From Lentisphaeria bacterium (lineage in GTDB: Bacteria > Verrucomicrobiota > Lentisphaeria > Oligosphaerales > Oligosphaeraceae): 57,584 bases of DNA. Position numbers and translations under genes: made by a program. The notes beneath the pieces are model-generated. The model had not been told where the DNA came from. It saw nothing but the letters and a program-made list of their open reading frames with translations, and searched no databases. How positions within the stretch are numbered: the stretch's first letter is position 1; each line of letters starts with the position of its first letter. The stretch lies in contig JAEDMH010000001.1 of the NCBI GenBank assembly GCA_016303095.1, positions 1 to 57,584 of the forward strand, read 5' to 3'. Positions 29,044-39,967 of this stretch are shown in pieces.

Positions 29044-30423
29044 ATGCTCTCCGCCTATCTGAATTGCTTTAAGATTCCGGAATTGAGAAAGCGCCTCTTC
29101 TTCACCTTCGCCATGATTGCGCTGGTGCAGCTGGCGGCCGCCATCCCCTGTCCGGGGATTGATCCCGCCCGCTTGAAGGAGCTCTTCGGCAATCTGAACA
29201 GCGATGCGGGCGCCTCGGGCATCATGGGCATGCTGAATCTTTTCAGCGGCGGAGCCATGGAGAAGTTTGCCATTGGCGCCTTGGGCATCATGCCCTACAT
29301 CTCCGCTTCCATCATTCTTCAGCTCATGACTCCCGTCATTCCTGCCCTGAGCAAGATGACCCGGGAAGGAGAGAGTGGAATGCAGCAATACAATTTCATC
29401 ATGCGCTTGTTGACGGTGGGCGTGGCCATTGTCCAGGGCGTGATGTTCTCCATGGCCATGATGGAACCCTCCCGGGTGGGCCTGGGAAATGTCTCCGTGG
29501 TGTCCAATCCCGGCGCGGGCTTCATCCTGCAAACGGTCATCATCCTTACGGGCGGCTCCATGTTCATCACCTGGCTGGGGGAGATGGTGACAGAGCGGGG
29601 CGTGGGAAATGGCGCCTCTCTCATCATCACCGTGAATATCGTGGCGAGAATCCCCAGCGCCCTGGTGAGTCTCTATCAAATGGTCTTCATGGGCAGCGCC
29701 ACCGGAGAAAGCCAGCTGACCATTCTCCATCTCCTGATCCTGGTTGTCCTCTTTGTTGCGGTGACGGTGGGCGCCATCGTCCTCACGGAAGGCATGCGGA
29801 AGATTCCCGTGCGCTATGCCCAGCAGCGCTCCATGGGATTCCTGGGCCGCTCCACCGGGGTGCAGACGACCTATCTCCCTCTCCGGGTCAACTACGCCAA
29901 CGTGATGCCCATCATCTTCGCCGGCGCCATCCTTTCCTTTGTGGAAATGGGAATCCGCTATCTCCCCTTGAATGGGGTCACCCAGTGGATCAGCACCAAG
30001 TTGGCCTATGGCTCCCCCAGCTATCTGGTGATCTACGCCGCCCTCCTTCTCCTCTTCTCCTTCTTCTGGGTGGCCAACCAGTTCAACCCTATCCAGATCG
30101 CCGATGATTTCCAGAAGAACAACGGCTACATCCCCGGCATCCGCCCCGGCAAGCCCACCAGCGATTTCCTGGATCACGCCATGACCCGCATTACCCTGGC
30201 CGGCGCCATCGGCTTGCTGATCCTGGCCATCCTGCCTATGGTTCTGGCTACCTCTTTCCTGAAAATCCCCCATACCATCGCCCAGTTCTTCGGCGGCACC
30301 AGCCTCCTCATCATTGTGGGCGTGATGTTGGATACCATGCGGCAGATCCAAACCTACCTCATCAGCCGCAACTATGATGGATTCCTCTCCAAGGGAATCC
30401 TCCGGAACGGACGGACGATGTAG
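29044..30423 (+). CDS. secY: Preprotein translocase subunit SecY
   Basis: 459 aa and 10 TM helices. IPELRKRLFFT, GIMPYISASII, GGTSLLI and VGVMLDT motifs. Confidence 0.95.
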   Translation: MLSAYLNCFKIPELRKRLFFTFAMIALVQLAAAIPCPGIDPARLKELFGNLNSDAGASGIMGMLNLFSGGAMEKFAIGALGIMPYISASIILQLMTPVIPALSKMTREGESGMQQYNFIMRLLTVGVAIVQGVMFSMAMMEPSRVGLGNVSVVSNPGAGFILQTVIILTGGSMFITWLGEMVTERGVGNGASLIITVNIVARIPSALVSLYQMVFMGSATGESQLTILHLLILVVLFVAVTVGAIVLTEGMRKIPVRYAQQRSMGFLGRSTGVQTTYLPLRVNYANVMPIIFAGAILSFVEMGIRYLPLNGVTQWISTKLAYGSPSYLVIYAALLLLFSFFWVANQFNPIQIADDFQKNNGYIPGIRPGKPTSDFLDHAMTRITLAGAIGLLILAILPMVLATSFLKIPHTIAQFFGGTSLLIIVGVMLDTMRQIQTYLISRNYDGFLSKGILRNGRTM

Positions 30424-30454
30424 ACCCACGGCCCATCCCCCAACGAGCTTTCAA

Positions 30455-30493
30455 GGGCGGACATGCTCCAGCATGCCCGCCCTTCTTTTTTTT
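30455..30493 (+). terminator. Strong rho-independent terminator after secY
   Basis: GGGCGGACATGC (30455-66) pairs with GCATGCCCGCCC (30471-82): 12 bp, one mismatch, 4-nt loop. It is followed by TTC plus a T8 run (30486-93). Confidence 0.8.
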
Positions 30494-30585
30494 CAGGGAC
30501 ATGGATATCTCAGGATTCCCGCTCCTCCCAACGGCAAGAAAAATGATTCCCTACGCCGCATGGATAGGAGATCGATATGCAATTC

Positions 30586-30689
30586 GCTGAAAACGCATGA
30601 AAAGGAAAGAACAATCTTGATTTCTTAAAAAATTTTTCTATAATACCCTTGTTCCGCTTCGGATTTTCCCGTTGCCCATCTTTCTCTCC
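30586..30689. repeat. Promoter/5'UTR cassette, copy 1 (~104 nt, AT-rich)
   Basis: Aligns without gaps to 31631..31734 with only a few substitutions (gctgaaaaYgca..ggaaagaacaatcttgatttcttaaaa..ttctataata..gttccgcttYggattttcccgttgcccatctttctctcc). Confidence 0.8.
30617..30644 (+). promoter_or_regulatory. Near-consensus sigma70-type promoter TTGATT-N16-TATAAT driving paralog P1
   Basis: TTGATT at 30617-22 and TATAAT at 30639-44, separated by an AT-rich spacer. GAAGGAG RBS at 30692-98 lies 5 nt before ATG 30704. Confidence 0.55.
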
Positions 30690-30703
30690 CTGAAGGAGCA
30701 TTG

Positions 30704-31621
30704 ATGTCCATGAGGCCGGTTCTTTGTCTTTCCCTTCTTTGTTGCTTCCTGTTTCTGGGTGGTGCCGAAGAGGACTACCGTGCCCATTTGGAGAAGGCCT
30801 TTGAGGTGATGGCCACTCGCACCATGGAGTATCAACACGCGGTGGGCATGGGGAAAGGGAGAAAGAAAGTGGTTTTCTACCAGATTCTTCAGGAGGGGAG
30901 GGCAGATGGTAGTGTTGTCCGCAGGGAGAGGAGACTTGGGCCGCTGGAAAAGACACCCCGGGAGAAGTTCCCTCTTGGGGCCTTTACTTTTGAATCCTAT
31001 TTCACGGACGAGGGATTTACCAAAGTGTATATCAGTCGAGAAAAACGAAGGGGAATACGGATGAAGCAATCGATTCCCCACCGGAGAATCCCTGCGGAAG
31101 CGAGAGTGTCGGGTCAGGTGGAACAACAGGGAGATGAGGCGTGCTGGAAGATTCAGGTGAAATGGCCGAAGGATGAATCGGGTGTGGAACGGAGGAGTGA
31201 ATATCTCGTTTCCCAGAGGGAATCTGTCCTTTATCGAGAAAGGGATTTTGATGGAAACGGACGTCTCCAGATGGAGGTAAAAAATGAGAATTTCAATTTC
31301 CATCCCCAGTCCTCACAGAAGGAATTTCGTCTCCCCCCATTGGATGAAATCCATTTTGCCAAGAATGCCCAGGAATTTTCAGAGATGTGTCAGAACGTGA
31401 CCTGGGAAATTGTCCAGGAGGCCATTCCGGAGTCCCGGGGAGGGACGAGAAAGAGCCCCTTGGCGAGGAAAGAGGGCTTTTCCCTTCGTTCCTGGCGACG
31501 CCTTCACCGTTCTCCCGTGCGGTCCGCTACCTGTGGCGTTCTGCTTCTGGCGGTGCTCTCCTTGGGCACCGCCCTGGCGCTGAAAAGTCGGAGTAAAAGG
31601 GGCGTATCGGTCGACCAATGA
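30704..31621 (+). CDS. Island paralog P1: signal peptide, ~230-aa periplasmic domain (LolA/RseB-like fold suspected), C-terminal TM helix and basic tail
   Basis: [21 protein letters not shown] signal. Family motifs YFTDEGFTKVYIS, ACWKI, RESVLYRERDFDGNG and NFNFHP..FRLPP. C-terminal [23 protein letters not shown]. Protein-level homology to four other ORFs in the island. Confidence 0.85.
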   Translation: MSMRPVLCLSLLCCFLFLGGAEEDYRAHLEKAFEVMATRTMEYQHAVGMGKGRKKVVFYQILQEGRADGSVVRRERRLGPLEKTPREKFPLGAFTFESYFTDEGFTKVYISREKRRGIRMKQSIPHRRIPAEARVSGQVEQQGDEACWKIQVKWPKDESGVERRSEYLVSQRESVLYRERDFDGNGRLQMEVKNENFNFHPQSSQKEFRLPPLDEIHFAKNAQEFSEMCQNVTWEIVQEAIPESRGGTRKSPLARKEGFSLRSWRRLHRSPVRSATCGVLLLAVLSLGTALALKSRSKRGVSVDQ

Positions 31622-31630
31622 GGGCCATTT

Positions 31631-31734
31631 GCTGAAAATGCAAAAAAAGGAAAGAACAATCTTGATTTCTTAAAATTTTTTTCTATAATACTTTTGTTCC
31701 GCTTTGGATTTTCCCGTTGCCCATCTTTCTCTCC
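31631..31734. repeat. Promoter/5'UTR cassette, copy 2
   Basis: Second copy of the 30586..30689 cassette, located upstream of the rhodanese-led operon. Confidence 0.8.
31662..31689 (+). promoter_or_regulatory. Near-consensus promoter TTGATT-N16-TATAAT driving the rhodanese-to-pseudopilin operon
   Basis: TTGATT at 31662-67 and TATAAT at 31684-89. Same geometry as copy 1. Confidence 0.55.
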
Positions 31735-31768
31735 TTCTTCGATGAGACAAGAGGTTAGGGAGGCAGAA

Positions 31769-32248
31769 ATGAAAATTCTACGGTGTCAGTCCATCCGAGA
31801 GTGCCTTTTGATTCTCCTCGTGGGAAGCCTTTGCCTGGGAAGTTTCTGGGACGGAGCGCAGGGGCGCAGGATGTCAGTGCCTAGGGAACGGCCTCGACAG
31901 AAGCAGGCGGACGCCATTGATCTTGTGGGGGTGCTGGGGTTGCTCCAGCAGTATGAGGATCGAGTGCTCCTGGTGGACGTGCGTCCCCGCCCGCAATATG
32001 AGACAGGACATATTCCTTACTCCTGCCCGGCCTATCCTCCCAGTTGCACCTGCGAACTGAGCCAGGAACTCTTGGAGCAGGGAAAGAAAGCGGATTTTGT
32101 GGTGGCGCTGGGGGTGCGGGGACAAGATTTTTCTCCTTTTCTCGCTCATTTCTCCCAGGAGGCTCGTTGCCCCGTGTTTCTTTACGAGGGAGGAATTTCC
32201 GAATGGAAGGGATGTGGCCTTCCTTGGGAGGGGGAGAAAGCAGAATGA
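31769..32248 (+). CDS. Exported rhodanese-homology-domain protein (no Cys in the expected catalytic loop)
   Basis: ATG 31769 after GAGGTTAGGGAGG. Signal/anchor CLLILLVGSLCLGSFW. Rhodanese blocks LLVDVRPRPQYETGHIP, FVVALGVRGQD and LYEGGISEW. The upstream TTG-start part of ORF 31694 is the duplicated noncoding cassette. Confidence 0.7.
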   Translation: MKILRCQSIRECLLILLVGSLCLGSFWDGAQGRRMSVPRERPRQKQADAIDLVGVLGLLQQYEDRVLLVDVRPRPQYETGHIPYSCPAYPPSCTCELSQELLEQGKKADFVVALGVRGQDFSPFLAHFSQEARCPVFLYEGGISEWKGCGLPWEGEKAE

Positions 32249-32667
32249 AACAGGGCCTCTTTCGCGGTGTGGCATGGGGACGCCGGGTGACTTGTCTCCT
32301 TTCTCTGCTGTTGCTTTTGAAGGGACCGGGACGCTTTGTGGAACTGGGGACGATCCTGGGCGCCTGGCCACTGGGGGCCTTGGCCTACATTCTTCTGGCC
32401 GGATACAGCGCCCTGTGGTGCGCCCGCCTGTGGTGCGGAACCCTTTCCCCGGGGGATAAGGGAGGAATGGCCTGCTCCCTGATCCTCTCCCTGTGTGTCC
32501 TGGCCATGGCCTTCGCTCCCTCTCTTCAGGCCTGCCACTGTGTTTCCTGGAATCCAGCTCAACTCTTCAGCCCCTACTGGAGATTTCTCCTGTGGTCAGG
32601 GTTGTGGCTAGGGGCAGAGATTCTTTCCTGCTGGTGGTTCACGCACAAAAAAGGAGATGTCCCATGA
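32245..32667 (+). CDS. Small 4-TM membrane protein with loop cysteines (MauE/DoxX-like or DsbB/VKOR-like, tentative)
   Basis: 140 aa with ATGA overlaps at both ends. Four hydrophobic helices. WCARLWC (CX4C) follows helix 2 and ACHC (CXC) follows helix 3. Pairing with a rhodanese is typical of MauE-family proteins. Confidence 0.6.
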   Translation: MKQGLFRGVAWGRRVTCLLSLLLLLKGPGRFVELGTILGAWPLGALAYILLAGYSALWCARLWCGTLSPGDKGGMACSLILSLCVLAMAFAPSLQACHCVSWNPAQLFSPYWRFLLWSGLWLGAEILSCWWFTHKKGDVP

Positions 32668-32897
32668 AACGAATCCTGCTTCTTCTTTCTTTTGTCCTGG
32701 TTGGAGTCTTGTTTCACCTCTTCTCCGAGGAAGTGGTCATTAGTTGCCAGGCACGGTGCTATGACCTTTACCAAGCGTATTACGAAGATTGCTGGGTCGC
32801 ATACTGGAATGACTGGGATGCGGCGCGGGACTGCGTGGATAAGATTGACGCAATGCGGGCGAAATGTGTGGCCAATTGTGAGCCAGAAGAGAATTAG
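32664..32897 (+). CDS. Small secreted six-cysteine protein A (CX3C-X10-C-X13-C-X10-CX3C)
   Basis: 77 aa. AAGGAG RBS 7 nt upstream and ATGA overlap with the preceding gene. Signal MKRILLLLSFVLVGVLFHLFS. The Cys scaffold is shared with ORF 38488..38754. Confidence 0.7.
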   Translation: MKRILLLLSFVLVGVLFHLFSEEVVISCQARCYDLYQAYYEDCWVAYWNDWDAARDCVDKIDAMRAKCVANCEPEEN

Positions 32898-32919
32898 CAG
32901 TTTTTACCCAGGAGCGTAG

Positions 32920-33797
32920 ATGTCCATGAGGCCGGTTCTTTGTCTTTCCCTTCTTTGTTGCTTCCTGTTTCTGGGTGGTGCCGAAGAGGACTACCGTGTC
33001 CATTTGGAGAAGGCCTTTGAGGTGATGGCCACCCGCACCATGGAGTATCGGGAACTGGTGGGGATGGGGAAGTGGGGAAGAAGCAAGATGAAGGTCTATC
33101 AATGTCAGAAGCCAGACGGACGCACCCTCCGGGTGGAGAAGGGATCGTGGAATGAGAAATGGGAACCCCGGGAGAAATTGCCTCCCGGGGTATCGGATAC
33201 TCACTTCTATTATACCGACGAGGGGTTTACCTACGTGTATGTCAGCCGGGAGAAGATTCGTGGCATCCGCATGAAGCAAGGAATCCCCCGAAAGAAGGTG
33301 GAGCCGGGGGACAAAATCACGGGCAAAACGGATGAGGAGGTGGACGGGTTCCCCTGCTGGATCATCCGGAGGGATAGGGGCAAGAAAGCCGAAGGGGCGG
33401 TGAAGGTGGAGGAATATGCCGTGGACAAGGAGAGTTTTGTCATTCGCCGGGAGCGTGCCTTCAATGAGAATGGAGGGCTGCTTATGGAACGGAAGCGAAT
33501 CAACTTTCTCTTCTCTCCTGTCTTTGAAGAGGGACTGTTTCAAGTGCCTCCCCTGGATGAAATCGCCTTTGCCAAAGATGCCTGGGAAGAGGTGGAACAT
33601 GTCAAGAAGTTCTCTTGGGAGATTGTCCAGGAGGCCATTCCGGAGTCCCAGGGAGGGACAAGAAAGAGCCCCCTAGCGAGGAAAGAGGGCTTTTTCCTTC
33701 GTTCCTGGCGACGCCTTCGCCGTTCTCCCGTGCGGGCCGCTACCTGTGGCGTTCTGCTTCTGGCGGTCCTCTCCCTGGGCACCGCCCTGGCGCTGAA
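32920..33797. repeat. 878-bp direct repeat, copy 1 (covers P2)
   Basis: Near-identical to 34848..35725 at an offset of 1928 bp. The encoded proteins are identical until about residue 250. Only a handful of substitutions were seen by eye. Confidence 0.85.
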
Positions 33798-33834
33798 AAG
33801 CCGAAGGAAAAGGGGCGTATCGGTCGACCAATGA
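32920..33834 (+). CDS. Island paralog P2
   Basis: The signal and first ~43 aa are almost identical to P1. Motifs [35 protein letters not shown] and NFLFSP..LFQVPP. C-terminal TM plus KSRRKR tail. AGGAG RBS. Confidence 0.85.
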   Translation: MSMRPVLCLSLLCCFLFLGGAEEDYRVHLEKAFEVMATRTMEYRELVGMGKWGRSKMKVYQCQKPDGRTLRVEKGSWNEKWEPREKLPPGVSDTHFYYTDEGFTYVYVSREKIRGIRMKQGIPRKKVEPGDKITGKTDEEVDGFPCWIIRRDRGKKAEGAVKVEEYAVDKESFVIRRERAFNENGGLLMERKRINFLFSPVFEEGLFQVPPLDEIAFAKDAWEEVEHVKKFSWEIVQEAIPESQGGTRKSPLARKEGFFLRSWRRLRRSPVRAATCGVLLLAVLSLGTALALKSRRKRGVSVDQ

Positions 33835-33981
33835 GTGCCAAGTTTCTTCTTGGCTCTGAGGAAAGATTCCTTTTTCGAGAATTTCTGTTGAGGCTTCAAA
33901 GTTTTTTGCATGGTTCATTTTCTTCTTCACCATTCGTGGACTGGTTTTTGCCCCTCATGGGGCATGAGAATCTGAAACATC

Positions 33982-34857
33982 ATGTCCTTTCTTCGCTGTC
34001 TATTTTGGTTTTTCCTGAGTGGGGGTGTTCTGATTGCCCAGGAGGATTTTGGGGCGCACCTGCGTCTTGCCTCTGAGGTGATGGCCACAGCCACCATGCG
34101 CTATACGCGGACGGTGCGCATGGGGATGCCTGGGGGGCGGGGAGAACTTTCCTATGATGTGATTCAGGAGATGCAGCCTCATGGCACCCTGTTTCGAAGA
34201 GAGGAGTTGATGCATGAAGGGCGTCTTCTCCGTCGGGAGTCCCTGCGGGGAATCCAGGAAATCCAGCGGATCTATTACACAGACCAAGGGGAAAGCATCG
34301 TCTTTATCTCCGCAAGGTCGGTGCGCACCATATGCACTCCCGAGGCGGTTCGCCGGCTGACGTTCACTTCCGAGAGTCAATTCTCGGGAAAGGAGATCAC
34401 CTATGCCGGAGTCCCCTGCTGGGAAATCCATCACACACTAAAATGGCAAGGCAAGTCCCTTCCCCGGGACTACATCGTGGAAAAGGAAAGTCATGTCATT
34501 CGACGAGAAAGGCTTCTGGATGAGGATGGCCGCATGCTCAGCGAAACGACGTACGGAAACTTCTCCTTTGCGCCTCAGGTCTCTCCAGGACTTTTTCAGC
34601 CTCCCGCTCCAGATGTCCTATTCTTTGCCCGAACTCCCGAGGAATTGGGAGAGGCCTATCGTGGAGTGACAGAAGCGCGCACTCAGGATTTTTTGAGTGA
34701 AAAGAGCCGGAATCTGCCACGTCCTGTGGTCAAAGGCAGGAGCCGAATTTCTGCCTTTTTGAGGGGGAGGGTGGTCTTGGTGGCGGGAAGTCTCCTTTGC
34801 TTCGTGGCAGCCGTCGTCTTGAAGGGACTTCGAAAAAAAAGGAGACAATGTCCATGA
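33982..34857 (+). CDS. Island paralog P3 (divergent)
   Basis: Signal MSFLRCLFWFFLSGGVLIA. Motifs YYTDQGESIVFIS, VPCWEI, KESHVIRRERLLDEDG and NFSFAP..LFQPP. C-terminal TM plus LRKKRR tail. Overlaps the P4 start by 10 nt. Confidence 0.8.
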   Translation: MSFLRCLFWFFLSGGVLIAQEDFGAHLRLASEVMATATMRYTRTVRMGMPGGRGELSYDVIQEMQPHGTLFRREELMHEGRLLRRESLRGIQEIQRIYYTDQGESIVFISARSVRTICTPEAVRRLTFTSESQFSGKEITYAGVPCWEIHHTLKWQGKSLPRDYIVEKESHVIRRERLLDEDGRMLSETTYGNFSFAPQVSPGLFQPPAPDVLFFARTPEELGEAYRGVTEARTQDFLSEKSRNLPRPVVKGRSRISAFLRGRVVLVAGSLLCFVAAVVLKGLRKKRRQCP

Positions 34858-35725
34858 GACCGGTTCTTTGTCTTTCCCTTCTTTGTTGCTTCCTGTTTCT
34901 GGGTGGTGCCGAAGAGGACTACCGTGTCCATTTGGAGAAGGCCTTTGAGGTGATGGCCACCCGCACCATGGAGTATCGGGAACTGGTGGGGATGGGGAAG
35001 TGGGGAAGAAGCAAGATGAAGGTCTATCAATGTCAGAAGCCAGACGGACGCACCCTCCGGGTGGAGAAGGGATCGTGGAATGAGAAATGGGAACCCCGGG
35101 AGAAATTGCCTCCCGGGGTATCGGATACTCACTTCTATTATACCGACGAGGGGTTTACCTACGTGTATGTCAGCCGGGAGAAGATTCGTGGCATCCGCAT
35201 GAAGCAAGGAATCCCCCGAAAGAAGGTGGAGCCGGGGGACAAAATCACGGGCAAAACGGATGAGGAGGTGGACGGGTTCCCCTGCTGGATCATCCGGAGG
35301 GATAGGGGCAAGAAAGCCGAAGGGGCGGTGAAGGTGGAGGAATATGCCGTGGACAAGGAGAGTTTTGTCATTCGCCGGGAGCGTGCCTTCAATGAGAATG
35401 GAGGGCTGCTTATGGAACGGAAGCGAATCAACTTTCTCTTCTCTCCTGTCTTTGAAGAGGGACTGTTTCAAGTGCCTCCCCTGGATGAAATCGCCTTTGC
35501 CAAAGATGCCTGGGAAGAGGTGGAACATGTCAAGAAGTTCTCTTGGGAGATTGTCCAGGAGGCCATTCCGGAGTCCCAGGGAGGGACGAGACAGAGCCCC
35601 CTAGCGAGGAAAGAGGGCTTTTTCCTTCGTTCCTGGCACCGCCTTCGCCGTTCTCCCGTGCGGGCCGCTACCTGCGGCGTTCTGCTTCTGGCGGTCCTCT
35701 CCCTGGGCACCGCCCTGGCGCTGAA
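34848..35725. repeat. 878-bp direct repeat, copy 2 (covers P4)
   Basis: See 32920..33797. Confidence 0.85.
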
Positions 35726-35762
35726 GATGGGGAAGAGAAAAGAAAACCAGGAGGTCCTATGA
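34848..35762 (+). CDS. Island paralog P4 (near-copy of P2 with a different extreme C-terminus)
   Basis: ATG 34848 after a GGAG RBS. Translation matches P2 apart from a few residues, plus a tail of [13 protein letters not shown] in place of LKSRRKRGVSVDQ. Confidence 0.85.
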
Positions 35763-36595
35763 GAGCAAAGAATCGATTCGCCACAGAACGGGCCAGGACG
35801 GGGCGTGCCTTTACCCTGGTGGAGTTGTTGACGGTCATGGGCATCATCGGCATCTTGGCCTCTCTGCTGTTGGGGGCGGTGTCCACGGCCCGGGGGCATG
35901 CCCGGCGGGCCGCCTGTCTGAACAACCAGCGGCAGACCCTGCTGGCCATGCAGATGTATGCGGGGGACTACAATGGCAACATGATGGTCTGCGCCGGCTT
36001 CAACGAGAATGACGTGTGGGCCTACAAGGCGGTGCTGGGCACCTCTTCCGACTGGCGGAAGCAGGCGATAGAACGCTATGGGCGTGCCCTGGGAGGAAAA
36101 TTCTCCCTGGGGTATCTTCCGGAGGAGGCCACCAGCTGTCCCAATGGCCACTTTGTTTCCTGGCGCACCACCTGGTGCTATGCCACTCCCCAGACCCATC
36201 GGGTCTGGCCTCTGGCCTATGGCGCCCTGGAGGGGGTGGTGACCCTGAAGGGATTCGACCAGATCTTCCGGTTTGACAGCTCCCCCCTCTCCGCCTCTCG
36301 CACGTATGTGTTGAGCGATTCCTGCTTTGCCGAGCAGTCGAAGATCACCTACAATGGATACAAGCCGGATGTGGAGACCTATCGCATGCACACCGGCTCC
36401 TCCGGCGCTGACGAACTGGCCGCGGCCCGCCATGGACGGAAGATCAATGTGGGCTTCTGGGATGGCCACGGAGAATCCATGGACTGCCAGTCTGCCGCCG
36501 AACTTTTCTCCAAAGGCACCAAATCCACGGTCACCTACATCTTTGTGGATGGAGTATTGGAGGAGTTCGAAACCTCCGGAAGCCTGGAGGATTAG
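35759..36595 (+). CDS. Prepilin-type N-terminal cleavage/methylation protein with H-X9-DG C-terminal motif (pseudopilin-like)
   Basis: [24 protein letters not shown] class-III signal and [13 protein letters not shown] (H-X9-DG). AGGAGG RBS and ATGA overlap with the P4 stop. Confidence 0.85.
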
Positions 36596-36766
36596 CCACT
36601 CTGTCTTTTCCTCCGGAGAGGTTTTTTCCGGGGGAAAGGGGGAATTTGGGAGGATTCGGGAGGCCAAGCCGGGAAAAAGGGACACATTACCCTGCATTCG
36701 TCTTCTCAAAGCCAGGGAAGTCCCATTCCCTCATGTTGCGTTGCCATCTTCCATTCCACCATCGTC

Positions 36767-38248
36767 ATGGAGTATTACTATCAGGGACAGTTGAGACTTC
36801 AGCTCTTTGGGGGCTCTCCCAACGTGACAGCCACCGTGCTTCTCTTTGCTTTCTTCCTGGTGCTGGGAGGAGTGGCCTTTGCCCGCCAGCGCATTCCGGG
36901 AAAACGCTGGCTTTGGGCAGGGGTGCCAGGATATCTTCTGTGTCTCCTGCTCCTGGAGGGATTGTTTCTTACCTATTCCCGGGGAGGCATGGTGGCCCTG
37001 GCCGTGGGATTGCTCTTCCTGGTCTGGAAAGAATGGCGCCTCCTGATTCCTCTCCTGGTGCCGGGACTCCTCCTGCTGGCCTTTACCCCTGCGGGCCTGA
37101 ATCGGGTCAAGGCGGTGGGAAATCTCCAAGACCGCTCCATCGGAAACCGGCTGATTCTCTGGTATCATGGATCGGGGATGATTCTGGACTATTGGAAGAA
37201 AGGGGTGGAGGTGGAGGCCTGCGGCACCCATTATACAAAATGGTATAAACCATTGGAGCAGAAGGTGGAAGGATATCGCGGCATGGTGAACGGGTATTTG
37301 ACCTACATGGGCAACCACGGATTGCCCAAGGCTTTCCTGGTCTTCTGGGGACTCTTCTTCCTGGTCTGCTGCACCCTGGATCTGGGCTATCTCAGGAATA
37401 TGCCCTTCTACCGATGTCTGGGGGCGGGAATGCTCTCCATGGCGGTCTGCGAGGTCTTCAGCACCATGTTCATCTTCCCCTCCATCCGGTGGTGCATGGG
37501 AATCGGCGGCGCCCTTGCCTTGGCAGGATTCCTCTGGAGCCATCGGGATGTCTGGCGCCGGCAGGCGGGGGCGCTGGCGACTCTGGGAAGAAGATTCGCA
37601 AGGCTGGCAGGCGCCGGTGCCCTCCTGGCTCTTCTCCCTCTTCTTGTGGTGGCGGTGATGGGATCCCTCGCCCGCCGAGAACAGTATTACCGCAGAACCA
37701 CGGGAACCCTGTCTCTGGATGGGAAGACGATGGCCTTTCAGCAATTCACGGCGAATCATCCCAATGGACGATGGATTCTCCATCTGGCGGGAAATGTGGA
37801 GGAGGAGGCCCGCAGCCGCATCCTGCCTCTGTGCCAAGCCGGCTACGGAGTTCTTTCCCTGGAAGGGGCAGAGAGATGGTCCTCCGAGGAAATGGATCGA
37901 AGACTCCCCTTGCTCCTGGCAAGACGGGAAAATCCCCCGTTCTCCGTTCTGATGGTTTCCGGAGGCCTGCCTGCCAATTGCGTTTTCCGTAGGTTCTGCG
38001 AAAAACGCCCGGAGAACATCTCGTGCCTGGTGCTCTGGGAACCCATTTGGCAACATCCCATGGAGGAGTATTCCCTGGAAGCCATGGACATTCCCGAAGG
38101 AGGCCACGTCCTGTTCCTGGAGGACGAGGAATGGGGACATTCCATGGGGGAAGCCTATGGAAAGACCCAGAAAGAAGAACGTGCAATCCAGGTTCCCTCG
38201 GGAGACCAGCTGGCCGAGGCCCTGGGAACCGCCTTGGAGGAACACTGA
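36767..38248 (+). CDS. Short O-antigen-ligase-like (Wzy_C-type) membrane protein with a soluble C-terminal domain
   Basis: About 8 TM helices. LTYSRGGMVALAVGLLFL resembles the Wzy_C core. It seems to lack the first ~4-5 helices of typical WaaL/Wzy_C proteins. The C-terminal ~190 aa are soluble and alpha/beta-like, with no clear GxSxG. Confidence 0.6.
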   Translation: MEYYYQGQLRLQLFGGSPNVTATVLLFAFFLVLGGVAFARQRIPGKRWLWAGVPGYLLCLLLLEGLFLTYSRGGMVALAVGLLFLVWKEWRLLIPLLVPGLLLLAFTPAGLNRVKAVGNLQDRSIGNRLILWYHGSGMILDYWKKGVEVEACGTHYTKWYKPLEQKVEGYRGMVNGYLTYMGNHGLPKAFLVFWGLFFLVCCTLDLGYLRNMPFYRCLGAGMLSMAVCEVFSTMFIFPSIRWCMGIGGALALAGFLWSHRDVWRRQAGALATLGRRFARLAGAGALLALLPLLVVAVMGSLARREQYYRRTTGTLSLDGKTMAFQQFTANHPNGRWILHLAGNVEEEARSRILPLCQAGYGVLSLEGAERWSSEEMDRRLPLLLARRENPPFSVLMVSGGLPANCVFRRFCEKRPENISCLVLWEPIWQHPMEEYSLEAMDIPEGGHVLFLEDEEWGHSMGEAYGKTQKEERAIQVPSGDQLAEALGTALEEH

Positions 38249-38256
38249 GGCTTCCC

Positions 38257-38279
38257 CGCAGACCACACAGTAATGCCCT
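38257..38279. repeat. 23-nt direct repeat, left copy (CGCAGACCACACAGTAATGCCCT)
   Basis: Matches 39717..39739 with 2 mismatches. It also forms the 5' side and loop of a hairpin (CCCCGCAG 38254-61 pairs with CTGCGGGG 38278-85). Confidence 0.6.
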
Positions 38280-38393
38280 GCGGGGCCACAGGCTTTCAAC
38301 AGGGAGCACACGGAATCCACGCTGGGCGGGGCGCGGAGACCCCAGAGGGGCGGTCCATGCACCCCGCACGTCCCGCTTCTGGGGGAGGGAGCC

Positions 38394-38417
38394 TCTCTAG
38401 AATCTCTAGAATCTCTC
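38394..38417. repeat. TCTAGA-core tandem repeat, left (TCTCTAGAA x2 plus TCTCTC)
   Basis: Read directly from the sequence. Two XbaI-type palindromes sit 9 nt apart, about 70 nt upstream of small Cys protein B. Confidence 0.7.
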
Positions 38418-38487
38418 GCCCCTGGTGTTCGACGAAAAATCCACACCACGTGTACTCAATCAGAAAACCAAACAAGGAGGAAGCCCC

Positions 38488-38754
38488 ATGAAAGGTGTTC
38501 TTGTTTCTCTTGTCTTTGTTCTCCTCGGTACAGGGCTGGCCCTAAGTCGAACCATGGTCCTCGCCGAACAGAATGAATTGTGCCGGTTGGCCTGTAATAA
38601 GAATGACAATGATCAAGTCGCGATTTGCAATCGGGAGTTTGGTGCTGGCGGCCCCCAGGAGAGTGAAGAGAGGAGGTTGGCTTGTCTCCTTGCCGCCGAC
38701 AAATCTTGGCGTTTATGCATGTCCGGTTGTTCTGATGCGGAGGTTGACAGATGA
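38488..38754 (+). CDS. Small secreted six-cysteine protein B (CX3C-X10-C-X18-C-X10-CX3C)
   Basis: 88 aa. AAGGAGG RBS 7 nt upstream. Signal MKGVLVSLVFVLLGTGLALS. Same Cys spacing as protein A except for the central loop. ATGA overlap with the P5 start. Confidence 0.7.
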   Translation: MKGVLVSLVFVLLGTGLALSRTMVLAEQNELCRLACNKNDNDQVAICNREFGAGGPQESEERRLACLLAADKSWRLCMSGCSDAEVDR

Positions 38755-39701
38755 GACGGGAAGAAAGGCATAAGGGCGTTCTGGCCTGGTTTTCCCCGAG
38801 GTGGAGAGGAATTTGCCGCACCTGGTTTGGGTGGGCCCTGATTCTTTGTTTGATGGCGGGGCAGGGGGCAGGGGGGGAGGAGCAGGATTGGGAAAGACTC
38901 CTTCGGGAGGCGGAGGCAACCATGCGACAGGCCACCATGACCTTCCGGCAACGGATCGGCCTGGGGAATGCCTCCTCCCAAACCAAGACGGAGGTGCTGG
39001 TATGGCAGAAAGGGGCTGGCGATGGCACGGTGCAACGGAGGATGGAGATTGCGGGAACGGGGTCTCAACCGGAGAACCTGCGGGGAGGACAGATGCTTTT
39101 CCGCACCTACTACAACGACCAGGGAAGAACGGAGGTGATTTTCTGGCAGGACAAGTGCTGGGGCATTCGCGTCCCCGCCGCCATCCCCCGATTTTTCCCG
39201 GAGACCCCGGCCCTGTTCTCCGGCAAGGAAAGTCTTTTTCACGAATATCCTTGCTGGGAAATCACCCGACACTACCAGGATAAAAACGGAAATGCCCTGC
39301 AGGATGTCTATCAGGTGGATCGGGAACACCGCGTCATTCGCCAAATGCGCTCCTTTAACGCCCAGGGAATGCCCACCTTCGCCTGCACCTACGAGGATTT
39401 CGATTGGCACCCCACCTTCCCTCCTGAACTCTTCCAACTGCCTCAGAAACTCCAGCTCTCTCTGGCGAAAAACGAGGAGGAGTTCACAAAAAAGAAAAGC
39501 CAGGCGATGGAGGAACTGACCAGGGAATGGAATCGGCGAGAAAAGGGGCGCAAAAACATCCCCTCTTTTCCTTGGCAAGAACGATGGAAAAGACGGATGA
39601 GGCATGCCTCTGGGCGCTTCGCACTCCTTGGCCTGGCCTTAGGATCCTTCCTCCTCCTGGGGCTGGGGATCGCCCTGAAGGTCCGGACAAAAAAAATGTG
39701 A
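38751..39701 (+). CDS. Island paralog P5 (most divergent)
   Basis: N-terminal anchor/signal WFGWALILCLMAGQGAG. Motifs YYNDQGRTEVIFW, YPCWEI, REHRVIRQMRSFNAQG and DFDWHP..LFQLP. C-terminal TM FALLGLALGSFLLLGLGIALK plus VRTKKM tail. Confidence 0.8.
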   Translation: MRREERHKGVLAWFSPRWRGICRTWFGWALILCLMAGQGAGGEEQDWERLLREAEATMRQATMTFRQRIGLGNASSQTKTEVLVWQKGAGDGTVQRRMEIAGTGSQPENLRGGQMLFRTYYNDQGRTEVIFWQDKCWGIRVPAAIPRFFPETPALFSGKESLFHEYPCWEITRHYQDKNGNALQDVYQVDREHRVIRQMRSFNAQGMPTFACTYEDFDWHPTFPPELFQLPQKLQLSLAKNEEEFTKKKSQAMEELTREWNRREKGRKNIPSFPWQERWKRRMRHASGRFALLGLALGSFLLLGLGIALKVRTKKM

Positions 39702-39716
39702 GCGCTGCCGCAGGAA

Positions 39717-39739
39717 CGCAGACCACGCAGAAATGCCCT
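39717..39739. repeat. 23-nt direct repeat, right copy (CGCAGACCACGCAGAAATGCCCT)
   Basis: See 38257..38279. Here it sits only 3 nt before the TCTAGA repeats. Confidence 0.6.
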
Positions 39740-39742
39740 TAT

Positions 39743-39766
39743 TTCTAGATCTCTAGATTTCTAGAT
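39743..39766. repeat. TCTAGA-core tandem repeat, right (YTCTAGAT x3)
   Basis: TTCTAGAT CTCTAGAT TTCTAGAT. Shares the 9-mer ATCTCTAGA with the left repeat (38402-10 versus 39749-57). Confidence 0.7.
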
Positions 39767-39806
39767 TTTCGCAGGCGGGGTGTCTCCGGGGTGTTGCCGG
39801 GCGAGC

Positions 39807-39834
39807 TTGCAAAAGGGTGGGCAAGGGTTATAGT
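39807..39834 (+). promoter_or_regulatory. Putative promoter of the rplK operon (TTGCAA-N16-TATAGT)
   Basis: TTGCAA at 39807-12 and TATAGT at 39829-34. Leaves a ~130-nt leader before rplK. Confidence 0.45.
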
Positions 39835-39967
39835 AAGGGTTCGTCTTTTCATGGCAGGCGTGTCATCTCCTTGACAGGGGCGGACATGGACCGTAGAAAA
39901 AGTGACATTTTTCGGGAGAGGACCTGCCACTTCTTACCGGAGAATGTCCGTTTTAGGAACAAACACG

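Follow-up and report, generated by a model that had tools for sequence, protein, structure and literature searches.

Two small secreted Cys-hairpin proteins, A and B, are encoded in a 57.6-kb stretch of a Lentisphaeria bacterium contig (JAEDMH010000001.1; the window below, read on the + strand), and each is followed directly by a gene for a member of a family of membrane-tethered periplasmic proteins (P1 to P5), A by P2 and B by P5. From sequence comparison with related contigs (loci L001 to L029), we propose that a hairpin and its downstream P protein form a polymorphic cognate binding pair, a reading to which we give a probability of roughly 0.55. The evidence for it includes the recurrence of the gene pair in other genomes, the correlated divergence of the two partners, and an allelic cassette that holds the body of one hairpin and the beta-domain of its partner.

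The hairpin-P pair recurs in other genomes, as the initial annotation had anticipated. Same-strand adjacency was found in every related locus recovered (L001 to L007, L008, L009, L012 to L016, L017, L019 to L024, and L026 to L029). The hairpin gene is directly followed by a P gene in L008, L012, L013, L015 to L017, L019 to L022, L023, and L024, and the order B-P5-rplK is kept in L001 to L007 and in L026 to L029. Two loci carry pairs in series: L014 reads nusG, P, Rhd, Mem, and then three successive hairpin-P pairs (Rhd and Mem being the two genes that precede A in the window), and L009 reads secY, a P3-type gene, a P2-type gene, two hairpin-P pairs, the prepilin gene, the Wzy_C gene, and rplK. 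Wherever the contig extended, no hairpin gene without a downstream P gene was seen in the recovered loci.

The most informative comparison is that with the closely related strain L023. Between the window and L023, the 3.1 kb of DNA covering Rhd-Mem-A-P2-P3 are 93 to 100% identical outside one island of 850 nt (32760-33610), the sole divergent stretch, in which identity is 33 to 68%. The island starts inside A, just past CQARCY, and ends with the beta-domain of P2; its content is therefore the hairpin body of A, the spacer, and the signal peptide and beta-domain of P2. The haplotype of the window is A+P2, while that of L023 is A' (71% identical to A) with a P1-type P. The window keeps an orphan P1 that is 96% identical to the P following hairpin A' in L023, and L023 carries P2-type orphans, one frameshifted and one intact. 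Window P3 is 98% identical to L023 7053-7928. P1, P3, and P4 had all been suggested to be orphan partners; the match of P1 to the partner of A' in L023 fits this idea. Adjacent co-varying genes accompanied by orphan partners, the features by which polymorphic toxin-immunity loci are recognized, are thus present here.

The two partners also diverge together. Across ten pairs, the pairwise identity of the hairpins, computed without the Cys residues, correlates with that of the P beta-domains (Mantel r=0.82, p=2e-4), and it does so too when only the eight A-type pairs are taken (r=0.61, p=0.007). This correlation shows that hairpin and P are duplicated and inherited together. Within the A-type hairpins, mean identity is 66% in the N-terminal segment and 56% in helix 1, against 22% in the loop and 29% in helix 2. 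Together, the correlated divergence, the island, the orphans, the variability of loop and helix 2, and the mosaic P genes described below are signatures of a polymorphic specificity module. L018 was considered as a partner swap, with the same A allele beside a different P; it is an N-gapped scaffold that joins the A and A' haplotypes at ~1337-1346, and the argument was dropped.

B had been described as a gene at 38488-38754 with six regularly placed Cys residues, and its sequence reads as claimed: MKGVLVSLVFVLLGTGLALSRTMVLAEQNEL-C-RLA-C-NKNDNDQVAI-C-(18)-C-LLAADKSWRL-C-MSG-C-SDAEVDR. A has the same spacing (x3/x10/loop/x10/x3) save for the loop, which counts 13 residues in A and 18 in B. The motif C-x3-C-x10-C-x5-40-C-x10-C-x3-C occurs twice in the six-frame translation of the window, at A and at B, and 0 times in 300 Markov-1 simulated windows. 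Almost only the Cys residues are conserved between the two proteins, which are 16 to 18% identical in alignment. Against a profile of ten A-type hairpins, B scores 3.7 bits, and when B was shuffled with its Cys residues fixed, 560 of 2,000 shuffles scored at least as high as the real protein. Since the profile does no better on B than on the shuffles, the earlier wording of a sequence-unrelated copy of the same scaffold is accurate, and we infer the common ancestry of A and B from the scaffold together with gene context. The junctions with the partner genes likewise read as described, with a gap of 22 nt between A and P2 (32897 to 32920) and an ATGA overlap of B and P5 at 38751-38754.

B, which is preceded by a strong Shine-Dalgarno sequence, is under purifying selection, the ratio of nonsynonymous to synonymous substitution rates (dN/dS) being 0.20 to 0.26 against the orthologs in L001 and L004. 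Its 90% cluster counts 40 members on dozens of contigs, and its signal junction resembles those of A-type homologs, which read ...LLA/EETV and ...LFG/EETV (the homologs of A are P0004, P0005, P0008, P0009, and P0011). All hairpins are acidic, with isoelectric points (pI) of 4.1 to 5.1, unlike most membrane-active peptides. Some A-type hairpins have a seventh Cys, in helix 2 or the loop (L012 6001-6261; L014 3617-3802 and 4765-5019). A hairpin and a P protein could conceivably form mixed disulfides.

The mature B hairpin was modeled with AlphaFold2 as a monomer from an 8-sequence alignment. In the numbering of the mature protein, the helices of the model span residues 2-25 and 31-53 (mean predicted local distance difference test score [pLDDT], 85.9; predicted template modeling score, 0.70), and the Cys residues lie at positions 6, 10, 21, 40, 51, and 55. 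The pairs 6/55, 10/51, and 21/40 are all centered on residue 30.5, inside the predicted loop, and offsets of +4 and +15 place the three Cys residues of each helix on one face. Given this mirror symmetry, three nested disulfides (C1-C6, C2-C5, and C3-C4) are the natural reading of the model and most likely staple the hairpin. Foldseek returned no significant PDB match for the model, and the hairpin profile searched against PDB sequences gave one match, the vicilin-like hairpin peptide 7uv2, which is not significant (E 0.15).

P5 was also modeled as a monomer, from 7 sequences (mean pLDDT, 78.1). Its model begins with a signal or transmembrane helix, followed by a helix at 47-60 and by 11 to 12 beta strands to residue ~238; a long helix (242-268) and a short basic helix come next, and the chain closes with the C-terminal transmembrane helix and its basic tail. 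In a Foldseek search of the PDB, the best match of the beta-domain is RseB (3m4w, E 3.5e-7), with 56 matches at E<=1e-3; MucB (6jau), LolA, LprG, and ependymin-related proteins are the other top matches, all with probability 1.00, and E values for the LolA/RseB/MucB/LprG superfamily run from 3.5e-7 to 1e-4. Consistently with these matches, the model combines an N-terminal helix with an unclosed antiparallel beta half-barrel, the hallmark of the LolA/RseB superfamily. The predicted structure thus places the P5 beta-domain firmly in the LolA/RseB/MucB/LprG/ependymin superfamily. With a half-barrel and a C-terminal anchor in the model, P5 was fairly described by the initial annotation as a tethered periplasmic protein, and the N-terminal signal and basic C-terminal tail suggest its topology. 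At the level of sequence, PF17131 (LolA_like) matches 10 of 17 P members weakly (best E 3e-4, below the gathering score of 30 bits); the best match in the window is that of P2/P4 (15.3 bits, E 0.016). P5 has no PF17131 match, and the P profile matched no PDB sequence. The LolA-like half-barrel cavity of RseB/MucB binds lipid, and the whole RseB/MucB protein binds the periplasmic segment of RseA/MucA (PMC7400510). By analogy of fold, the P half-barrel may bind lipid. All P proteins have an invariant Cys in the beta-domain (PCW motif; C168 in P5).

A P-family profile search finds exactly five P paralogs in the window. P5 is about equidistant from all the others (28 to 32% identity), the lowest pair being P1-P5 (27.9%) and P2-P5 standing at 30.8%. 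The idea of cognate pairs had been argued partly from P2 and P5 as the most dissimilar members of the family; that premise fails, and what stands is the recurrent adjacency, the co-divergence, and the allelic cassette. P4 is 95.7% identical to P2 in amino acids and 100% identical in DNA over ~700 nt. The duplicated segment, which does not include A, begins ~15 nt before the ATG. P1 and P2 are mosaic genes: their DNA is 92 to 100% identical over the first ~130 nt and the last ~200 nt, and 45 to 70% identical over the central beta-domain. Together with the P2/P4 identity, this mosaicism indicates gene conversion or recent duplication inside the array. In L010 (5642-6615) and L023 (3622-4541), the P2-type copy in the first array slot is split by frameshifts; these copies appear to be pseudogenes, and the array holds decaying members.

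The B-P5 pair shows how the two genes may be lost. Two B null alleles, which are independent in origin, were found with P5 intact: in L004 to L007, codon 57 is changed from CAG to TAG, and 13 contigs, drawn from several samples, carry a +1 A frameshift within the signal peptide. P5 thus survives the loss of B, which is incompatible with an obligate heterodimer and would suit either an immunity protein that outlives its toxin or an accessory subunit that can be dispensed with. In L009, neither B nor P5 is present in the interval from the Wzy_C gene to rplK, so that the pair is present or absent as a unit. P5 has orthologs of 96% (P0006) and 77% (P0007) identity and a dN/dS of 0.34. The pair is flanked by a direct repeat (Table 1) whose 14-nt core occurs 2 times in the window, against a chance expectation of 0.04. 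In the empty site of L009, two copies of a similar motif, CAGACCACACGG, lie ~40 nt apart. A tandem motif containing TCTAGA (TCTAGAATC, two copies) lies ~75 nt upstream of B at 38396-38416, another TCTAGA-containing motif (TCTAGATCTCTAGATTTCTAGA) just downstream of P5 at 39744-39765, and a similar one upstream of B in L004; these motifs may mark an operator or the boundary of a cassette. In a consensus promoter and terminator scan around B-P5, the one promoter-like site lies upstream of rplK, and no terminator was convincing. We read B-P5 as an old and strongly diverged satellite copy of the module, non-polymorphic and in some cases decaying.

In the mechanism that we propose, the hairpin would be exported by Sec and oxidized to an antiparallel two-helix hairpin with three disulfides, and P would be held on the inner membrane by its C-terminal transmembrane helix with the half-barrel in the periplasm. 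Each hairpin would bind the open half-barrel of the adjacently encoded P, giving a matched complex in the periplasm. Specificity would be set by the parts that vary, namely, loop and helix 2 on the side of the hairpin and the beta-domain on the side of P. The constant parts (the signal peptide and helix 1 of the hairpin and the anchor of P) would provide export and tethering. Because the population genetics are like those of a specificity pair, the most likely specific role would be that of an effector with a tethered neutralizing or binding partner, as in toxin and immunity; we offer this assignment tentatively, at odds clearly below even.

A is coupled upstream as tightly as it is downstream: Rhd and Mem overlap by ATGA, as do Mem and A, so that the A unit has four genes, not two. 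L012 and L014, distant relatives with 41 to 52% identity, have the order Rhd-Mem-hairpin as well; the Rhd-Mem region lies at L014 2558-3513, L012 5206-5996, and L023 4706-5604. B-P5 has no Rhd-Mem neighbors. In alignment, the canonical active-site Cys of rhodaneses is missing from the rhodanese-like Rhd, in which CTCELS is invariant and which also has a C-terminal CGLPWE. In the membrane protein Mem, ACHCV(S/T)WN is invariant and falls in a loop predicted to be periplasmic. Mem belongs to no Pfam family, and by hidden Markov model neither Rhd nor Mem belongs to the thioredoxin or DsbB family. Rhd and Mem could serve as a thiol relay dedicated to hairpin maturation, a putative relay that we liken to Mia40, which acts on twin-CX3C/CX9C hairpins. 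The oxidoreductases of glycocin clusters (PMC12457901) offer a second parallel in logic. In L017, a DDE transposase gene (PF13701; 723-2033) lies directly upstream of A-P2, in the slot held by Rhd-Mem in the window, L019, and L020.

Several observations weigh against a specific binding pair. P genes without a hairpin gene are common, and P4 was copied from P2 without A, so that a P can evidently exist without a hairpin of its own. Correlated divergence and cassette exchange can also be expected from linkage or shared history alone. The primary partner of A could be Rhd/Mem rather than P. The family is known from a handful of metagenome-assembled relatives, which leaves few independent observations. 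As for function, the hairpins have no evident route across the outer membrane and P has no signaling domain. In the ortholog comparison, B (dN 0.046) is more conserved than P5 (dN 0.126), which is not the classic arms-race pattern of a toxin. Neither A nor B matches any family in Pfam, NCBIfam, PADLOC, or PHROGs, toxin and defense families included.

Several other explanations can be given for the pair. If adjacency were meaningless, with neighbors co-copied by tandem duplication, the rampant duplication in the array (P2/P4 and the duplicated pairs of L009) and the narrow sampling would account for what is seen. Yet pairing persists between A-P2 and B-P5, whose P proteins are ~30% identical and whose hairpins share the Cys scaffold alone, and the start/stop overlaps are kept; that B is not a real gene is contradicted by its Shine-Dalgarno sequence, signal peptide, dN/dS of ~0.2, and confident predicted fold. 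We hold this explanation very improbable. An envelope thiol/redox or lipid module, in which the hairpin is a substrate or subunit of Rhd/Mem, P is a lipid or lipoprotein carrier, and the pairing reflects co-expression, would draw on the ATGA chain from Rhd to A and the Rhd-Mem-hairpin order kept in L012 and L014, on the invariant CXC motifs of both Rhd and Mem and the invariant PCW Cys of P, and on lipid binding by the LolA and RseB folds (PMC7400510). It is made unlikely by B-P5, which has no Rhd-Mem beside it, by L009, whose hairpin-P pairs occur without Rhd-Mem in the locus, and by the strain-level cassette polymorphism, paralog arrays, and pseudogenes, which are unusual for a housekeeping pathway.

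A pherotype-like system, with the hairpin as a secreted signal and P as its specific tethered receptor, would explain a hypervariable island made up of the ligand body and the extracytoplasmic domain of the partner between conserved flanks, the non-producer B alleles with an intact partner, and the orphan P copies, which could eavesdrop. It is nevertheless improbable, since P has one transmembrane helix, ends in ~7 cytoplasmic residues, and lacks any kinase or other output domain (P5 ends 7 residues past its helix, with no cytoplasmic histidine kinase domain), no regulator gene lies in the locus, and the hairpin has no evident way out of the periplasm. We consider it possible that the hairpin is a disulfide-stabilized antibacterial effector acting in the periplasm of competitors, with P as the cognate immunity protein and P1, P3, and P4 as orphan immunity proteins directed at the hairpins of other strains. 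The order of effector and immunity genes with translational coupling, the replacement of effector and binder domains as one allelic cassette, the presence in each strain of the P type of the other as an orphan, and the repeated loss of a hairpin that is never found without P while P5 is kept all fit such a function. A prepilin-like gene coupled to P4 would, more speculatively, fit type II secretion-like export. Helical-hairpin bacteriocins with nested disulfides and their own oxidoreductases do exist, as in the glycocins and sublancin with BdbAB (PMC12457901). Besides the absence of a family match, the acidity of the hairpins, and the better conservation of B than of P5, this function is opposed by a leader that is of Sec type rather than double-glycine and by a locus without a dedicated exporter. 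We know of no LolA-fold protein described as an immunity protein. In its fullest form, the effector reading would amount to a new Sec-dependent, periplasm-acting polymorphic system of three-disulfide hairpins in gut bacteria of the Planctomycetes-Verrucomicrobia-Chlamydiae group, matured by a Mia40-like CXC relay of a "dead" rhodanese-fold protein (CTC) and a four-helix membrane protein (CHC) and neutralized by LolA-fold proteins; P would then be a new immunity fold, orphan P genes a strain-level repertoire, and B-P5 a decaying satellite. We regard this full system as a long shot, while the simpler proposal of a polymorphic cognate binding pair is the one that we retain.

Table 1. Features of the P/hairpin array and its surroundings (window coordinates)
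Feature	Position	Strand	Basis or remark
secY	29044-30423	+	
P1	30704-31621	+	P paralog without upstream hairpin gene
Rhd, rhodanese-like	31769-32248	+	Pfam PF00581, E 5.5e-10; first gene of Rhd-Mem-A-P2 unit
Mem, 140-aa multi-pass membrane protein with invariant Cys	32245-32667	+	ATGA overlaps with Rhd and A
Gene A, 77-aa Cys-hairpin protein, paralog of B	32664-32897	+	Start overlaps Mem stop (ATGA)
Allelic hypervariable island vs L023	32760-33610	+	Sliding-window DNA identity
Gene P2, partner of A	32920-33834	+	22 nt downstream of A
P3	33982-34857	+	P paralog without upstream hairpin gene
P4, recent P2 duplicate	34848-35762	+	Stop overlaps prepilin-like gene start (ATGA)
Prepilin/DUF1559-like gene	35759-36595	+	
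Wzy_C gene (O-antigen-ligase-like, 493 aa)	36767-38248	+	
Left copy of 23-nt direct repeat, CGCAGACCACACAGTAATGCCCT	38257-38279	+	Flanks B-P5 cassette
Shine-Dalgarno sequence, AAGGAGGA	38475-38482	+	5 nt upstream of B ATG; read from sequence
Gene B, 88-aa secreted Cys-hairpin protein	38488-38754	+	Open reading frame and translation
Predicted Sec signal peptide of B, MKGVLVSLVFVLLGTGLALSRTMVLA	38488-38565	+	Sequence inspection; probable cleavage after VLA
Mature hairpin domain of B	38566-38751	+	Cys motif 38581-38730
Gene P5, 316-aa membrane-tethered periplasmic LolA/RseB-fold protein (predicted)	38751-39701	+	ATG overlaps B stop (ATGA)
P5 periplasmic domain (predicted), residues ~43-240	38877-39470	+	DSSP of AlphaFold2 model, Foldseek
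P5 C-terminal transmembrane anchor, FALLGLALGSFLLLGLGIAL, then basic tail KVRTKKM	39618-39677	+	Sequence; predicted helix 287-315
Right copy of 23-nt direct repeat, CGCAGACCACGCAGAAATGCCCT	39717-39739	+	21/23 identical to left copy

The P/hairpin array (window 30424-39901) is embedded in a translation-machinery neighborhood. Its downstream end is rplK wherever this gene is on the contig, and in the window P5 is followed by the run rplK-rplA-rplJ-rplL-rpoB. The upstream neighbor is secY in the window, L009, and L021 and nusG in L010, L012, L014, and L023, where the array splits the normally conserved nusG-rplK junction. Array content varies between strains whose flanking genes nearly match. The order of a prepilin-like gene and a Wzy_C gene is also found in L009, L011, and L023, and a pilin gene beside Wzy_C recalls the pilin O-oligosaccharyltransferase pairs (PilA with TfpO/PglL).

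The nearest named relatives of the window contig are Oligosphaeraceae metagenome-assembled genomes (Lentisphaerota, within the Planctomycetes-Verrucomicrobia-Chlamydiae group), and related contigs come from gut metagenomes, pig gut among them. A HMMER scan of the hairpin profile against 1.84 billion representatives gave about six genuine clusters (P0002, P0003, which is a truncated B allele, P0005, P0008, P0009, and P0011), all of which keep the x3/x10/loop/x10/x3 spacing. P0010, from the same scan, was rejected as a spurious repeat protein. P0002 (98 aa) contains an internal duplication of the B loop region that is probably an assembly artifact and was ignored; artifacts such as P0002 and L018 could mislead automated analyses. 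Word-indexed homology searches gave 3 matches for B, 2 for A, and 2 for P5, all close relatives, and scans of two metagenome collections with P-family profiles gave no matches. Relatives of P were found only in Oligosphaeraceae/Lentisphaeria metagenome-assembled genomes and on one 2.4-kb contig, L008 (CAVGTF010000176.1), which holds P, hairpin, and P and is binned as Anaerovoracaceae (Firmicutes); it is probably a mis-binned Lentisphaerota contig rather than a case of horizontal transfer. Literature searches on periplasmic three-disulfide hairpins and on LolA-like proteins paired with small proteins turned up no account of the system. The hairpin-P module is thus narrow, unannotated, and lineage-specific, and neither component is in a described family.

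If hairpin and P are a specific binding pair, they would represent a new use of the LolA/RseB fold, namely, the capture of a protein ligand with strain-level specificity, as well as a new bacterial class of disulfide-stapled helical hairpins. They would also offer a first way into how strains of Lentisphaerota, a little-studied gut phylum most of whose members are uncultured, interact with or recognize one another. The natural cassettes (A+P2 and A' with the P1-type P) and the B-null strains are ready controls for specificity and loss of function. Should the pair be an accessory envelope module only, it would be a narrow, lineage-restricted curiosity.

Among known small proteins, the hairpins are closest in architecture to two groups. 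Plant alpha-hairpinins have the motif C-X3-C-X(4-20)-C-X3-C or, with six Cys residues, C-X3-C-X3-C-X(4-20)-C-X3-C-X3-C (PMC11591084). Their helix-loop-helix fold is held by nested disulfides, and Cys residues are essentially their sole conserved positions (PMC11591084). The hairpins resemble them in this last respect, in a predicted helix-loop-helix form, and in mirror-symmetric Cys positions that would suit nested disulfides. B and A, however, have x3/x10 rather than x3/x3 spacing, and the separation of their inner CX3C elements is 35 to 40 residues, outside the range of 4 to 20, so that neither protein has the alpha-hairpinin motif; the hairpins also differ in their bacterial origin, Sec signal, acidity, and lack of sequence homology. 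Glycocins (sublancin, glycocin F, and thermoglycocin) are helical-hairpin peptides with nested disulfides, some of them with three, and their clusters encode the oxidoreductases BdbAB/GccCD (PMC12457901); for sublancin, SunI is reported as the immunity gene (PMC6391423). Known from Firmicutes, glycocins have a SunS-type glycosyltransferase, a double-glycine/GK leader, a PCAT exporter, and C-x6-C spacing, while the hairpin array contains no glycosyltransferase or ATP-binding cassette (ABC)/PCAT gene and its signal is of Sec type. The glycocin immunity protein is unrelated to the LolA fold of P.

P itself is best compared with RseB and MucB, its closest structural matches, which belong to envelope-stress sensors of Proteobacteria. 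As in RseA/RseB and MucA/MucB, the partner is encoded immediately upstream. RseA and MucA, however, are anti-sigma factors, while in the array that position is taken by a secreted, free-standing Cys-hairpin, and the interval from secY to rplK contains no gene for a sigma or anti-sigma factor. P has no sequence-level relationship to RseB or MucB, which are soluble and have two domains; P members have a single predicted half-barrel with helices and a C-terminal transmembrane anchor. LolA, LolB, and LprG belong to the same predicted fold class, in line with the weak PF17131 matches of P members. They are soluble or lipid-anchored single-copy housekeeping carriers, while P is transmembrane-anchored, arrayed, polymorphic, and hairpin-paired.

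With respect to organization, the closest parallels are polymorphic toxin-immunity loci with their arrays of orphan immunity genes and the pherotype cassettes agr and comQXP, in which a hypervariable peptide is combined with a hypervariable sensor domain. The hairpin-P pair differs from all of these in having no recognizable toxin domain, delivery system, or receptor output domain. In both kinds of locus, as in the A-P2 island, a variable part and the binding domain of its partner are exchanged as a cassette between conserved flanks, and with polymorphic toxin-immunity loci the array further shares orphan partners that match the alleles of other strains and the loss of the effector with retention of the partner. 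The logic of the hairpin-P module resembles that of known polymorphic cognate-pair loci.

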